A stretch of 64,000 nt of DNA from Kofleriaceae bacterium (GCA_036403075.1 DASWRS010000244.1:4200-68199); one strand, 5' to 3'; shown: positions 13,719-16,245, counted from the first letter of the stretch. Notes: generated by a model not told the origin, from the sequence alone. Numbers and translations are program-made.

Positions 13719-15218
13719 TCATCGCCCCGCGGGCTCGTAGCGGCCCGGCGCCAGGACGCCGGCGGGGTCGAGCGCGGCGCGGAGCCGCCGCATGGCCGCG
13801 GCACCGTCGTCGATGCGACGCGCGGCGACCGGCATGTCGTGGATCCCGAGGCGATAGGGCAACCAGCCGTGCCTGGCCCACCGGGTGGCCAGCGCGCGAG
13901 AGCACGCAAGCGCGCGGCGGTCGGCGCCGGGTGCCTCGCGATCGTAGAGCAGCAGGGCCGTGAGGTGGGCGGCGCGCGGCCAGCACAGGGCGATCGCCAG
14001 CATCGGCTCGAACCCGTGGCGCTCGAGGATGCGCTCGGCGACCGAGAGCGCGCGCACCACCTCCGCGCCGCGCAGTGGGACCATGGCGTTGTGCCAGATC
14101 ACGCCGCAGCGATCGCGATCGGGGTCGAGCACGGCCGGCGGCGGAGTCCGCTTGCGCCAGTACACGGTGCGGAGGTTGGTCGGATCGACGATGTCGTGGC
14201 CAACGTTGCGCACCACCGTGAAGCGATCGACGGCGGGCGCGATGCGCTCGCGGACGACGCGCCGCTCGAGCCGGGCGAGCTCGGGGCTGGCGGTCTCGAG
14301 CACGATCGAGCCGTTCCAGCGCGACAGGCCGCCGGCCGAGCGCAGCGAGGCGCGCACCGCCGCGGGCAGCGGAGGCCGCGGCGCGAGGTCCCACGGGTAC
14401 TGGATGTGGCGGGCCAGGACCCGCAGATCGCTGGCGAACGTGACGCAGCCGCGGACCGAGCGCTCGAGCAACAGGTCGCGCAGCCGATCGAGCAGTGAGG
14501 CGAGCCGCGCCGGATCATCGACGCCGAACCGCAGGATCTCGCGATGGCGCGACTCGGGCCACAGCCAGATCGTCATGCGCGTGACGATGCCGAAGCTCGA
14601 CTGGGCGAACAGCCCCGACAGCGATGGCCCCAGGGCGCCCGGGAACGTGTGCGCGGCGCGCGCCGACGCGTAGCCCGCCCAGCCGGTGTGCAGCAACGTG
14701 CCGTCGGCAAGCACGACCTCGAGCTCGCAGGTGTTGGCGAAGCGATCGAAGTCGATGCCGTTGCCGAGGCCGCGCTCGAGCGCGTTGCCGACCAGGCTGG
14801 CATCGGGGCTCGATCCGGTCAGGCTGATCCGCAGCGGCGCCCGCCGCCGGCGCAGGAACGCGGCCAGCTGGCCGACCGTGACGCCGGGTTCGACGGTGAC
14901 GTAGGCCAGCGCCGGATCGAACGCGACGATCCGGTTCATCCGTCGCAGATCGAAGAGGGTCGCGTCCTCGGGCGGGACCCGCGATCCATAGCCCCAGTTG
15001 CAGCCCCGGCTGACCGGATAGATCGGAACGCGACGCGACTGCGCGACCCGGACACACGCTTGCACCTCGGCGACGCCGGCCGGGCGCACGATCGCCCGGA
15101 CCCGCGGGCGGGTCTGGTACGTCGCGGTCGACGCGTCGTCGAGCGCGCCCGGATCGGTCACGACGTGGTCGCGGCCGACGATCCGCCGCCACGCCGCCAG
15201 CGCCGCTCGAAGGCTCAT
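13719..15218 (-). CDS. FAD-binding oxidase, VAO/PCMH (FAD_binding_4) type
   Basis: PAGVAEVQACVRVA...PIYPVSRGCNWGYGS...VTVEPGVT pattern of vanillyl-alcohol-oxidase-type flavoproteins. ATG 15218 lies 10 nt after the upstream stop, with GAGG in the gap. Confidence 0.85.
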   Translation of the reverse strand: MSLRAALAAWRRIVGRDHVVTDPGALDDASTATYQTRPRVRAIVRPAGVAEVQACVRVAQSRRVPIYPVSRGCNWGYGSRVPPEDATLFDLRRMNRIVAFDPALAYVTVEPGVTVGQLAAFLRRRRAPLRISLTGSSPDASLVGNALERGLGNGIDFDRFANTCELEVVLADGTLLHTGWAGYASARAAHTFPGALGPSLSGLFAQSSFGIVTRMTIWLWPESRHREILRFGVDDPARLASLLDRLRDLLLERSVRGCVTFASDLRVLARHIQYPWDLAPRPPLPAAVRASLRSAGGLSRWNGSIVLETASPELARLERRVVRERIAPAVDRFTVVRNVGHDIVDPTNLRTVYWRKRTPPPAVLDPDRDRCGVIWHNAMVPLRGAEVVRALSVAERILERHGFEPMLAIALCWPRAAHLTALLLYDREAPGADRRALACSRALATRWARHGWLPYRLGIHDMPVAARRIDDGAAAMRRLRAALDPAGVLAPGRYEPAGR

Positions 15219-15228
15219 CCAGGCCGCC

Positions 15229-15894
15229 TCACGTGGACGGCCGCTCGCGAATCCAGACGTTGATCGCCCACTTCGCGACGTCGCTGGCAACCTCGCCGCC
15301 GAGGTGCAGCGTGTTGCGAAGCACGCGCCCGGACCGGGTCACGTTGAGCCAGCACACGGCATCGCCGGCGACCGGCTGGACCTCGAGCCCGAGCCTGGGA
15401 AACACCAGCGCGCCGCCATCGGCGACCGTGAGCGTCGTCAGGTGAACGAACACCGAGATCACCGACTGCCCGGAGTCCCGGAGAGCCTGGGGATACTCCT
15501 CTGCGTCCCAGTGTGGGCGCAGACTCTGGCCGCGCCGGCACAGCACGGCCGTCATCGGCTCGAAGCACGCCACGGAGCGACCGCTCAGCCCGACCAGCCG
15601 GCGCTGCAGCGATCGGAGGGCCCGATCGCCGCTGTAGCGACCGGGCCCGGCCAGGGTCAGCGTCCTCGCACCGCGCGCCGCTGCAGCAGCGCGCCGTGCC
15701 AGATAGCCACTCTCGGTGGCGGTCAGCAGACCGTGCACGTACGCGATGACCGGCCGCTGCGAGAGTCGTTCGACCCTCGTGCGTCCGTCCCCCGCGTCGC
15801 GCCCGAACACCGGCGGCAGCGCCGGTCGCCGGCGCGCAGGACACAGCGTCCGGTGCTCGGGCTCGGGCTCGGTATTCCCCAGGGCCTGCCTCAC
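15229..15894 (-). CDS. 2OG-Fe(II) oxygenase, prolyl 4-hydroxylase-like
   Basis: HWD ... GGALVFP ... GDAVCW ... TLHLGGEV ... KWAINVWIRE fits the P4H-type HxD...H / R-K signature. Start is uncertain (GTG 15894 lacks a spaced SD). Confidence 0.8.
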   Translation of the reverse strand: MRQALGNTEPEPEHRTLCPARRRPALPPVFGRDAGDGRTRVERLSQRPVIAYVHGLLTATESGYLARRAAAAARGARTLTLAGPGRYSGDRALRSLQRRLVGLSGRSVACFEPMTAVLCRRGQSLRPHWDAEEYPQALRDSGQSVISVFVHLTTLTVADGGALVFPRLGLEVQPVAGDAVCWLNVTRSGRVLRNTLHLGGEVASDVAKWAINVWIRERPST

Positions 15895-15919
15895 TCCGTT
15901 GCTGGGGTGTGATCCCGGA

Positions 15920-16081
15920 TCAGCAGATCGGGTCAGAGCCCGGCGCGAGCGGGGCCCCGGGGCCCTGGCCGCCCTTCACGGTCTTCAACGCGCTGCCGTT
16001 CAGCGCGCGGAGCGCCGACGCGCGGCGCTTCTGGATCGACGGATCTTGGCTCTTGCGGGAGTCGTGCTTCGTGTTCTTCAC
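15920..16081 (-). CDS. 53-aa double-glycine-leader peptide (candidate RiPP precursor), copy 1
   Basis: GGAGG, then 5 nt, then GTG. Sequence is VKNTKHDSRKSQDPSIQKRRASALRALNGSALKTVKGG|QGPGAPLAPGSDPIC. A paralog at 19096-19257 keeps length and frame. The operon position is upstream of the two oxidative enzymes. Confidence 0.7.
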   Translation of the reverse strand: MKNTKHDSRKSQDPSIQKRRASALRALNGSALKTVKGGQGPGAPLAPGSDPIC

Positions 16082-16179
16082 GGGAACCTCCTGTTCATCC
16101 CACGATGGTGTGAGATGGTTCCGTGACGTTGTCAGATGTCGCTGTATAGGCGCAATGACAATACGAATGATTGGTCGGC

Positions 16180-16195
16180 GGCAATATGTTTGCCA
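16180..16195 (-). promoter_or_regulatory. Sigma-54 (-24/-12) promoter element
   Basis: The minus strand reads TGGCAAACATATTGCC, i.e. TGGCA-N6-TTGC with canonical GG/GC spacing. It lies ~100 nt upstream of the peptide start and is identical in copy 2. Confidence 0.7.
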
Positions 16196-16232
16196 GGTGT
16201 ACCGGTACGATCCGGGTGTTCCGCGAGAATCC

Positions 16233-16245
16233 CTGGCAGTGCCAG
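16233..16245. promoter_or_regulatory. Perfect palindrome CTGGCA-G-TGCCAG upstream of the sigma-54 element (candidate activator site)
   Basis: A 13-bp perfect inverted repeat ~40 bp upstream of the -24 box. Confidence 0.35.

Follow-up and report, generated by a model that had tools for sequence, protein, structure and literature searches.

Candidate three-gene cassette for a modified ribosomal peptide in Kofleriaceae-type myxobacteria: a small double-glycine peptide gene with prolyl-4-hydroxylase-like and phenol-oxidoreductase-type partners

Is a 53-codon open reading frame (ORF) ahead of two oxidative enzyme genes a gene in its own right, and is its product the substrate of those enzymes? The question is raised by positions 13719-16245 of a 64,000-nucleotide (nt) stretch of DNA from a Kofleriaceae bacterium (GCA_036403075.1, DASWRS010000244.1:4200-68199; the window, hereafter), where the frame is followed by genes for a prolyl 4-hydroxylase (P4H)-like oxygenase and for a flavoprotein of the vanillyl-alcohol oxidase/p-cresol methylhydroxylase (VAO/PCMH) family. 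An earlier note on this DNA had described the locus as a sigma-54-driven operon of a pathway resembling those for RiPPs (peptides made on ribosomes and modified after translation). All the motifs that it quoted are found and its statements about the sequence hold, except for one gap that differs by 1 nt; the core of its interpretation is supported, whereas its arguments from sigma-54 control, X-Pro-Gly triplets and a generic oxidase are not. By comparison across loci the small ORF is a real, conserved coding gene, and on balance the three genes probably form a minimal RiPP-like cassette of Kofleriaceae-type myxobacteria in which the peptide is the substrate.

A conserved small gene ahead of two enzyme genes

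The cassette is read from the minus strand and its parts are as follows, in the order of translation.

16087-16091, minus strand: Shine-Dalgarno sequence GGAGG, with a 5-nt spacer before the GTG start of copy A
15920-16081, minus strand: precursor-like small gene, copy A; 53 codons, GTG start at 16081, stop at 15920-15922
15229-15894, minus strand: gene for a P4H-like 2-oxoglutarate (2OG)/Fe(II) oxygenase, 221 aa, PF13640
13719-15218, minus strand: gene for a VAO/PCMH-family flavoprotein of the 4-phenol-oxidoreductase type, 499 aa, PF01565

The copy A peptide, VKNTKHDSRKSQDPSIQKRRASALRALNGSALKTVKGGQGPGAPLAPGSDPIC (53 aa), has a basic N-terminus, an amphipathic leader ending in VKGG and a 15-aa Pro/Gly-rich segment with DPIC at its C-terminus. 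The coordinates and translation signals that the earlier note had given for it were verified in the sequence. The P4H-like gene does lie downstream, at a distance of 25 nt from the peptide stop and not the 26 nt reported before. The ATG of the flavoprotein gene is at 15218, 10 nt past the P4H stop, and the gene ends convergently with a HEAT-repeat gene (12764-13702), both as previously described; the gap to the HEAT-repeat gene is 16 nt.

Related loci were recovered with the P4H-like protein alone and not with the peptide, and the small ORF was then sought by tblastn. It was found in frame and directly upstream of the P4H gene in every recovered locus with upstream DNA (L007, L008/L010, L009, L011, L012, L013, L014, L015, L016, L017, which is cut by a contig end, and L018). 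Orthologous loci without a conserved in-frame ORF had been named beforehand as the outcome that would speak against the proposal; all 12 distinct cassettes carry the ORF ahead of the P4H-like gene, with 16-47 nt between the peptide stop and the P4H coding region.

The homology search that had been suggested for the peptide yields a discrete family, whether by tblastn, profile or hidden Markov model (HMM). Among 5.8 billion protein clusters, a profile search retrieved 32 (defined at 90% identity), all with E ≤ 1.7e-14, and no match between that value and E = 10; in these 32 clusters the small ORF had already been annotated by independent gene callers. An exhaustive HMM search of 1.84 billion representative proteins returned 12 representatives of the family and two marginal repeat proteins. 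One of the latter, P0060, resembles a repeat artefact and was set aside. The other, P0059 (153 aa predicted, from an ENA metagenome, on a 9.5-kb contig), consists of three tandem read-through repeats of ...SLLKAAAGGDPAALSTDPIC, each unit corresponding to the leader end and core of the peptide family, and no stop codon separating one unit from the next. Either a degenerate array or an artefact of assembly could account for it.

The family comprises 34 distinct peptides of 48-57 aa. They differ in length by whole codons only, and in all of them the stop follows directly after the Cys; members down to 45% identity retain the start, the frame, the stop position, the GG and the DPIC. Nucleotide variability is greatest at codon position 3, followed by positions 1 and 2 (0.84, 0.65 and 0.51 bits, respectively), and the median pairwise dN/dS of the peptide gene is about 0.47 (0.55 between copy A and a second window copy, copy B, described below). 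A ribosome-binding site of the GGAG/GAGG type is present at the equivalent place in the orthologous loci. The peptide has no Pfam or NCBIfam match, even at E up to 10 across 28 members, and Rfam gives no match at E up to 1 over the peptide gene and its upstream region (15850-16450). The gene clearly exemplifies a small gene that is conserved and yet covered by no curated family model.

The cassette is equally regular downstream. The flavoprotein gene comes next in 10 of the 10 cassettes whose contig extends far enough, which, with the 12 of 12 for the P4H-like gene, answers the call for a co-occurrence count. The P4H and flavoprotein genes overlap by 4 nt in L013, L014 and L017 and are separated by 10-13 nt elsewhere (10 nt in the window). 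The two enzyme genes are tightly coupled. Among cassettes, identity is 77-87% for the flavoprotein, 68-79% for the oxygenase and 45-65% for the peptide. The flanking genes are unrelated between loci:

Window: ice-binding-like gene upstream, HEAT-repeat gene downstream
L012: Ser/Thr kinase genes
L013: JmjC_2 gene (367-1188) directly upstream; MFS_3 gene (3867-5108) right after the flavoprotein gene
L015: arginase gene
L016: epoxide hydrolase gene
L017: HAD hydrolase gene
L018: Cupin_8 gene (6880-7920, opposite strand) and patatin gene

Because the flanks differ in every locus, the unit is exactly three genes, the peptide gene and those of two oxidative enzymes, as had been proposed from the window. 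In the loci compared, the small gene is inherited only alongside both enzyme genes, apart from additional copies that are orphans or stand in tandem. The ice-binding-like gene (DUF3494, PF11999, E 8e-69), at 16433-17257 (minus strand) directly upstream of the peptide gene, is also present in the close relatives L002 and L003 and is missing from more distant cassettes. It and the HEAT-repeat gene were considered as parts of the system and rejected, being conserved in the closest relatives only; the ice-binding-like gene is probably outside the system. A gene for a JmjC-type 2OG oxygenase stands beside two cassettes (JmjC_2 in L013, Cupin_8 in L018). These genes and the MFS_3 gene of L013 may be optional tailoring or export genes.

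All named sources of the family are metagenome-assembled genomes of Kofleriaceae (Myxococcota, Haliangiales); the others are metagenomes, at least one record being labelled soil. When one genome per species was scanned for the P4H, the only match was an unrelated P4H of Phenylobacterium, 29% identical, which has no flavoprotein gene beside it. Since that scan found no family member, the lineage is not among the reference genomes.

The two enzymes and the peptide family

The oxygenase matches PF13640 (2OG-FeII_Oxy_3) with 33.6 bits against a cut-off of 27. The iron-binding residues His128-x-Asp130 (as His128-Trp-Asp130) and His197 are invariant in 16 orthologues, and Lys208 is present in at least 90% of them. 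A profile search of PDB sequences returned only peptidyl prolyl 4-hydroxylases: the Bacillus anthracis P4H at 7e-11, and also Chlamydomonas Cr-P4H-1, the alpha subunit of human C-P4H-II, the chlorella-virus collagen P4H and P4H-TM. The AlphaFold2 model has a mean predicted local distance difference test (pLDDT) value of 80 and a predicted template modelling (pTM) score of 0.78, with the first ~27 residues predicted to be disordered. Prolyl 4-hydroxylases occupy Foldseek ranks 1-34 of its structural neighbours (TM-score ~0.62-0.67), followed by the EF-Tu hydroxylase PPHD and then by other 2OG oxygenases. Domain match, iron triad, PDB matches and Foldseek neighbours thus agree on the P4H-like identity put forward earlier. 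Membership of the P4H group is well supported, and in both its modelled fold and its catalytic residues the oxygenase agrees with peptidyl prolyl 4-hydroxylases. Both enzymes lack signal peptides, so their chemistry would be cytoplasmic and would precede export.

The flavoprotein matches PF01565 (FAD_binding_4) at E 5e-26. Its residues 5-493 align with nsVAO of Novosphingobium (9FFK/9FGE) at 2e-65; the PCMH flavoprotein (1DII/1WVE) follows at 9e-56 and vanillyl-alcohol dehydrogenase (VAD; 8S7N and others) at 5e-51, and eugenol oxidase and VAO are also full-length matches, the whole range being E 2e-65 to 1e-30 (PDB entries of the phenol enzymes were identified via PMC7617285). Counted along the PCMH alignment, PCMH Tyr95 corresponds to Tyr77 (CNWGYGS), and PCMH Tyr473-Arg474 to Tyr455-Arg456 (GWLPYRLG); none of the three residues varies among 9 cassette orthologues. 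We take the PCMH triad Tyr95/Tyr473/Arg474 to be what holds the substrate phenolate in characterised enzymes. Conserved Arg and Tyr residues of this group stabilise the phenolate form (PMC7617285).

The residues around the flavin are different. At the positions used for covalent attachment of FAD there is an Asp (PCMH Tyr384) and a Val (VAD His387). Since nsVAO also lacks a covalent flavin link (PMC7617285), this is no bar to membership of the group; FAD is probably bound non-covalently. The position of PCMH Glu380 is a Pro, and the pair on the N5 side of the flavin is Gly-Ser, within an invariant SLTGSSPDASL. The corresponding signatures are Asp/Glu-Leu in oxidases and Ala/Thr-Pro/Ile in dehydrogenases (PMC7617285, Table 1). 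No cytochrome c partner gene is present. The earlier assignment to FAD_binding_4 and the VAO/PCMH type therefore stands, and the description as a generic oxidase of that superfamily does not: judged from these alignments, the flavoprotein belongs to the 4-phenol oxidoreductase group as a divergent, full-length member whose phenolate pocket is intact.

The peptides were aligned on the double glycine, counting back from it. G stands at -2 in all 34 members and at -1 in 33, the remaining one having A there. Position -4 holds V (24), A (9) or I (1); position -7 is L in all; position -12 is L (33) or V (1); and position -15 is L (32) or V (2). Basic residues recur as K at -6 (32 of 34), R at -14 (33 of 34) and R at -19 (32 of 34). 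The double-glycine leader pattern recognised earlier in the window peptide is thus held by every member, with hydrophobic residues at -4, -7, -12 and -15. Recognition by the C39 domain of peptidase-containing ATP-binding cassette transporters (PCATs) requires GG, GA or GS and hydrophobic residues at -4, -7 and -12, and in ComC also at -15 (PMC10885120). The agreement with that rule was counted for the RiPP-like reading. The leader has a strongly basic character (MKNTKR.., RRASALRAL, K at -3 and -6). Besides DPIC, the best-conserved part of the peptide is its N-terminal two-thirds (MKNTK, RASALRAL..ALK.VKGG).

The segment after the GG has 11-19 residues, is variable in length and sequence and is mostly Pro-rich, PPPPSS being common; polyproline is missing from several members, such as those with DGATQVYSSDPIC and DGTTTNLYPSDPIC. 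The Asp-Pro-Ile-Cys end that had been seen to be shared with the paralogue proves invariant in all 34. It is preceded by Ser or Thr in 28 members and by Gly, Ile or Ala in the other six, and its Cys is the only one in all peptides but one. The suggestion that X-Pro-Gly triplets are a collagen-type substrate site does not extend to the family: Pro-Gly occurs in only 8 of the 34 cores, and X-Pro-Gly was rejected as the family's hydroxylation site, the argument being particular to the copies of this genome. The core of P0054, DGATQVYSSDPIC, has no Pro besides that of DPIC. The DPIC Pro is the only one found in every member, which makes the C-terminal DPIC the conserved candidate target.

Upstream region, additional copies and other window features

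The elements upstream of the peptide gene and around its second copy are listed here.

16083-16122, minus strand: 5' leader hairpin, stem 16110-16116/16097-16103, RNAfold -17.4 kcal/mol
16129-16163, minus strand: family-wide upstream motif GRATTGYNNTTGCR-N15/16-TGRCAR, from comparison of upstream regions
16181-16195, minus strand: sigma-54-like -24/-12 element TGGCAAACATATTGC, 100-114 nt upstream of the copy A start
19031-19083, minus strand: flavoprotein gene remnant, 53 nt, 92% identical to 14811-14863, 13 nt past the copy B stop
19096-19257, minus strand: precursor-like small gene, copy B (P0004), an orphan paralogue; 53 aa, ending in DPIC
19357-19371, minus strand: sigma-54-like element of copy B, with the same core TGGCAAACATATTGC

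The core of the sigma-54-like element, TGGCA-N6-TTGC (TGGCAC-N5-TTGC), is found 2 times in the window, where 0.20 matches are expected; as one site is a duplicate of the other, the pair counts as a single event. Upstream regions were scored with a simple weighted consensus (maximum 20) and compared with random 250-nt segments. Only the window copies and L002 score 18; L007 scores 17.5 and L005 scores 17. The other 11 regions score 12.5-16, values reached by 23-87% or more of the random segments. With most orthologous loci at background, the site was rejected as a family-wide feature. No gene for an enhancer-binding protein (AAA+ Sigma54_activat) was found among the window proteins scanned. L019 has an NtrC-type sigma-54 activator gene (6927-8294) 1.7 kb from an orphan precursor gene, upstream of which there is no recognisable -24/-12 site. 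Of the sigma-54-driven operon proposed before, then, the element itself is present and is shared by the window's subclade, for which its sequence makes sigma-54 control plausible; it is not a trait of the family, and the window proteins scanned include no activator.

The upstream motif is more widespread. It occurs in 14 of 16 upstream regions and ends 45-50 nt before the start in 12 of them, namely both window copies, L002, L005, L007, L008, L012-L016 and L018; the distance is 21 nt for the first gene of L009 and 64 nt in L019, and the motif is missing in L011 and from the second tandem gene of L009. It is more likely than the sigma-54 site to be the common control element of the family. Its sequence can be read as a weak sigma-70-type -35/extended -10 pair, or as an operator. 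A generic promoter and terminator scan of 13500-16500 reported nothing, this motif included. Between the motif and the start lies the hairpin, whose outer GGAACC (16117-16122) can, in the window, pair with GGTTCC (16083-16088), overlapping the ribosome-binding region. Most other loci have, in single-sequence folds, a hairpin of 5-7 bp with a different sequence at the corresponding place after the motif. RNAalifold found no consensus structure on a MAFFT alignment of the 5' leaders, in which MAFFT had left the hairpins unaligned. Covariation of the hairpin is suggestive, and motif and hairpin together could be a promoter, an operator or a switch in the 5' untranslated region.

The copy B peptide, MKNTKYDCRKNQDLSIQKRRASGLRALSGSALKAVKGGQGPGAAAPPGIDPIC, is 79% identical to that of copy A. 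The two copies share 81-86% nucleotide identity over ~480 nt (15903-16365 versus 19079-19560), and since they resemble each other about as closely in the non-coding DNA upstream as in the ORF, their paralogy alone says nothing on coding. The similarity stops at the end of the 53-nt flavoprotein remnant; on the copy B side there is no oxygenase gene, and the first ~355 nt of the gene for the flavoprotein are gone. The remnant marks copy B as a duplicate of the cassette that is truncated but still has the upstream region and an intact peptide ORF. Upstream of copy A (~16320-16440) there is a decayed remnant that resembles the 3' end of a 98-aa gene that is intact upstream of copy B (19486-19782, minus strand; tblastn E 8e-6, VRRNVDIAVRWYGVV versus VRCNVDLAVRWRGMV). 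The ancestral duplicated segment would then have contained the end of that gene, and the two copies lost different flanks.

Extra copies are found elsewhere too. Two precursor genes stand in tandem in L009, and an orphan precursor (48 aa, 10001-10147 of L019) is present in L019/L020, from the same assembly (GCA_965187385.1) as cassette L013. The orphan copies, in the window and in L019/L020, have no downstream enzyme genes and remain intact. RiPP systems often have additional precursor copies. At 7-8 kb from the L019 orphan there is a LanC-like gene accompanied by a lanthipeptide leader gene.

Three eukaryotic-type Ser/Thr kinase genes are present in the window (5910-9227, minus strand; 44487-46748, plus strand; 46922-50290, minus strand), one of them fused to TPR repeats; Ser/Thr kinase genes flank the L012 cassette as well. 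A non-homologous end-joining gene set occupies 25350-30821: Ku (25350-27305, minus strand), a PolX/PHP polymerase (26885-29059, plus strand) and a LigD primase-polymerase/phosphoesterase (29064-30821, plus strand). One or both of the Ku and PolX ORFs probably have a start called too far upstream, given their overlap of ~420 nt. GC-rich tandem repeats with a 15-nt period are found at 24746-25069 and 26959-27245.

Possible roles of the peptide, and known systems

From the sequences we infer the peptide's status as substrate, the site of hydroxylation, the flavin step, cleavage and export, in the following scheme. The peptide would be the substrate of both enzymes, an amphipathic helix with Leu at -15, -12 and -7 and Val/Ala at -4 serving as its recognition or leader element. 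The P4H-like enzyme would hydroxylate the DPIC proline and probably the spacer prolines too. The flavoenzyme would then carry out a two-electron oxidation of the modified C-terminal unit, taking hydroxyproline (Hyp) to an oxo or enol species and/or acting on the terminal Cys, with an anionic, phenolate-like oxygen held in the Tyr/Tyr/Arg pocket. An unlinked C39-type peptidase/exporter would cut after GG/GA and free a product of 11-19 residues. In this genome, transcription of the cassette may start from a sigma-54-type promoter.

A stronger version, which we put forward tentatively and with somewhat less than even confidence, is that the cassette represents a new RiPP class restricted to Kofleriaceae-type myxobacteria, in which a collagen-type P4H and a 4-phenol-oxidoreductase-type flavoenzyme jointly rebuild the C-terminal DPIC of a double-glycine-leader precursor. 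One option is conversion of Pro via Hyp and an oxo/enol form to a phenol-like pyrroline or pyrrole that the phenolate pocket could bind, the product perhaps being captured by the thiol of the terminal Cys; another is attachment of a quinone-methide-derived aryl group to the DPIC Cys. Either, if true, would be new to the peptide chemistry of ribosomal natural products.

Several observations weigh against the peptide being the substrate. The first concerns processing. The absence of an adjacent C39 peptidase or exporter, remarked on before, is confirmed more widely: neither the 64-kb window nor five long related loci yielded a C39 peptidase, a PCAT, another protease or a dedicated exporter (the scan covered 25 window proteins called with confidence and the gene tables of L001, L012, L013, L018 and L019). 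With no linked protease found, it is the leader pattern that argues for cleavage after GG. Two transport gene sets were considered as a dedicated exporter and set aside, not being recurrent across loci, save for the one MFS_3 gene of L013. These are a MacAB/TolC-like set without a C39 domain, 35 kb away (50534-55243, minus strand: an outer-membrane efflux protein, a 236-aa ABC ATPase and an HlyD-family adaptor), and the TetR-MFS-HlyD genes that adjoin copy B. Other points concern recognition and substrate. Among curated leader and bacteriocin models the best match is lant_leader_L1a, at E 0.13 and in 2 of 28 members. Neither enzyme has a recognisable RiPP recognition element (RRE) or extra peptide-binding domain, and their lengths match those of stand-alone homologues. 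Bacterial P4Hs of the same fold can act on whole proteins, B. anthracis P4H with EF-Tu (5V7Y) being among the matches. Beyond the leader helix and DPIC, the dN/dS value indicates merely moderate constraint. Finally, the intact phenolate pocket points to a phenolic substrate, yet only 4 of the 34 cores contain aromatic residues and no Tyr, Phe or Trp is conserved. By sequence, this mismatch between a phenolate pocket and a phenol-free peptide is the most interesting unexplained feature of the system and a real puzzle.

Some of these points would be accounted for if the small protein were real but an accessory partner of the enzymes (a subunit, an activator or a thiol/redox partner) and not their substrate, an explanation that we consider unlikely, though the most serious of the alternatives. 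The enzymes would act elsewhere, the flavoenzyme on a free 4-alkylphenol and the oxygenase on a cellular protein or on free or peptidyl proline; in one variant the C-terminal Cys would be a nucleophile trapping a quinone-methide intermediate. PCMH works with a small cytochrome c subunit. The full-length similarity of the flavoenzyme to nsVAO, PCMH and VAD, which oxidise free phenols (PMC7617285), fits such a role, as do the Tyr/Tyr/Arg pocket kept in 9 of 9 orthologues, the want of conserved aromatic residues in the peptide and the EF-Tu hydroxylation just mentioned. The peptide, however, has no haem-binding or other cofactor motif and only one Cys, it carries the full double-glycine leader signature, and its tandem and orphan extra copies are typical of substrates rather than subunits. 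Aromatic-catabolism genes stand beside the cassette in no locus, and the covalent-FAD and N5-side residues of the phenol enzymes have been replaced (Asp for Tyr384, Val for His387, the Gly-Ser pair).

Still less probable, to a degree that leaves it little weight, is a cis-acting role, with the small ORF as a stalling leader peptide (an upstream ORF) controlling the enzyme genes, maybe together with a hairpin that can mask the ribosome-binding site. PPPP runs and X-Pro-stop-like ends are known stalling contexts, the ORF stands 16-47 nt upstream of the P4H gene in every locus, and the 5' leader is structured. Yet the conserved N-terminal two-thirds would sit outside the exit tunnel, a part that is normally variable in arrest peptides; several members are free of polyproline; and intact orphan copies without enzyme genes (copy B, L019/L020) and two tandem copies in L009 are not what such a role would predict. 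A chance open frame in GC-rich intergenic DNA, with the likeness of copies A and B due to recent duplication and their non-coding DNA about as similar as the ORF (81-86% over ~480 nt), is refuted by the retention of start, frame, stop, GG and DPIC down to 45% identity, by whole-codon indels, by the excess of variation at codon position 3 and by the conserved Shine-Dalgarno sequence.

If the peptide is the substrate, the cassette would bring together a P4H-type 2OG oxygenase and a VAO/PCMH flavoenzyme, a pair new to the biosynthesis of ribosomal peptides, and the 4-phenol oxidoreductase scaffold would gain a peptide-linked role unforeseen by its known biochemistry. With three genes and no obligatory neighbours, the system is about as simple to reconstitute heterologously as possible, and the 34 natural precursor variants show which positions are fixed (leader helix, GG, DPIC) and which are free. 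Its distribution is narrow, and its hosts belong to a lineage of poorly cultured myxobacteria, known for rich secondary metabolism. In the literature searched, the coverage of which is incomplete, no paper pairs a P4H-type oxygenase or a VAO/PCMH flavoenzyme with a ribosomal precursor, and the earlier remark that no RiPP class built on this pair has been described holds to that extent. We are aware of no P4H of this type in a bacterial RiPP cluster.

The nearest neighbours of the oxygenase in sequence and structure are the peptidyl P4Hs (3ITQ/5HV0 of B. anthracis, 2JIG/3GZE of Chlamydomonas, viral vCPH and the catalytic domain of human C-P4H-II), with which it has in common the double-stranded beta-helix, the His-x-Asp...His triad and the 2OG-binding Lys, and which act on Pro-rich peptides. 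Unlike these enzymes, to which it is 17-26% identical, it has a gene paired with that of a small co-encoded peptide; the classical X-Pro-Gly site is kept in 8 of the 34 peptides and the invariant candidate is Asp-Pro-Ile-Cys. The flavoprotein has the FAD_binding_4 domain, full-length homology and Tyr/Tyr/Arg equivalents of the VAO/PCMH phenol enzymes and, like nsVAO, no covalent flavin link. It differs from them in its Gly-Ser N5 pair, in the change of Glu380/Tyr384 to Pro/Asp and in having no cytochrome c gene; its genomic partner is a phenol-free peptide and not an aromatic-catabolism operon.

The peptide resembles double-glycine precursors (ComC/ComA, LahA/LahT) in its short length, its GG leader (GA in one member), its amphipathic helix with hydrophobic residues at -4, -7, -12 and -15, and the occurrence of several precursor copies per genome. 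Here, in contrast, there is no PCAT/C39 gene in the window or the related loci examined and no match to a curated leader HMM, and the leader is strongly basic, whereas double-glycine leaders are usually acidic. Scaffold-type RiPPs transform only the last residues of their precursor, as in MftA of mycofactocin (Val-Tyr), PqqA of pyrroloquinoline quinone (PQQ) and TglA of 3-thiaglutamate/pearlin (Cys). An invariant C-terminus, a variable spacer, a conserved recognition helix and a very small enzyme set are common to these and to the present cassette. Their enzymes are radical S-adenosylmethionine (SAM) enzymes, multinuclear non-haem iron-dependent oxidative enzymes (MNIO) or peptide aminoacyl-tRNA ligases (PEARL), whereas here they are of the P4H and VAO/PCMH types, with no RRE or PqqD-like protein. 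Flavoproteins of the LanD/EpiD type (homo-oligomeric flavin-containing Cys decarboxylases, HFCD) oxidatively decarboxylate a C-terminal Cys to aminovinylcysteine (AviCys), and the cassette likewise pairs a flavoenzyme with a precursor ending in an invariant Cys that bears a free carboxylate; here the fold is that of PF01565 and not HFCD, with no dehydratase and no conserved Ser/Thr as thioether partner. Each part of the cassette resembles a known family; the pairing of the two enzymes is unprecedented, and the cassette is a candidate for a new RiPP class.

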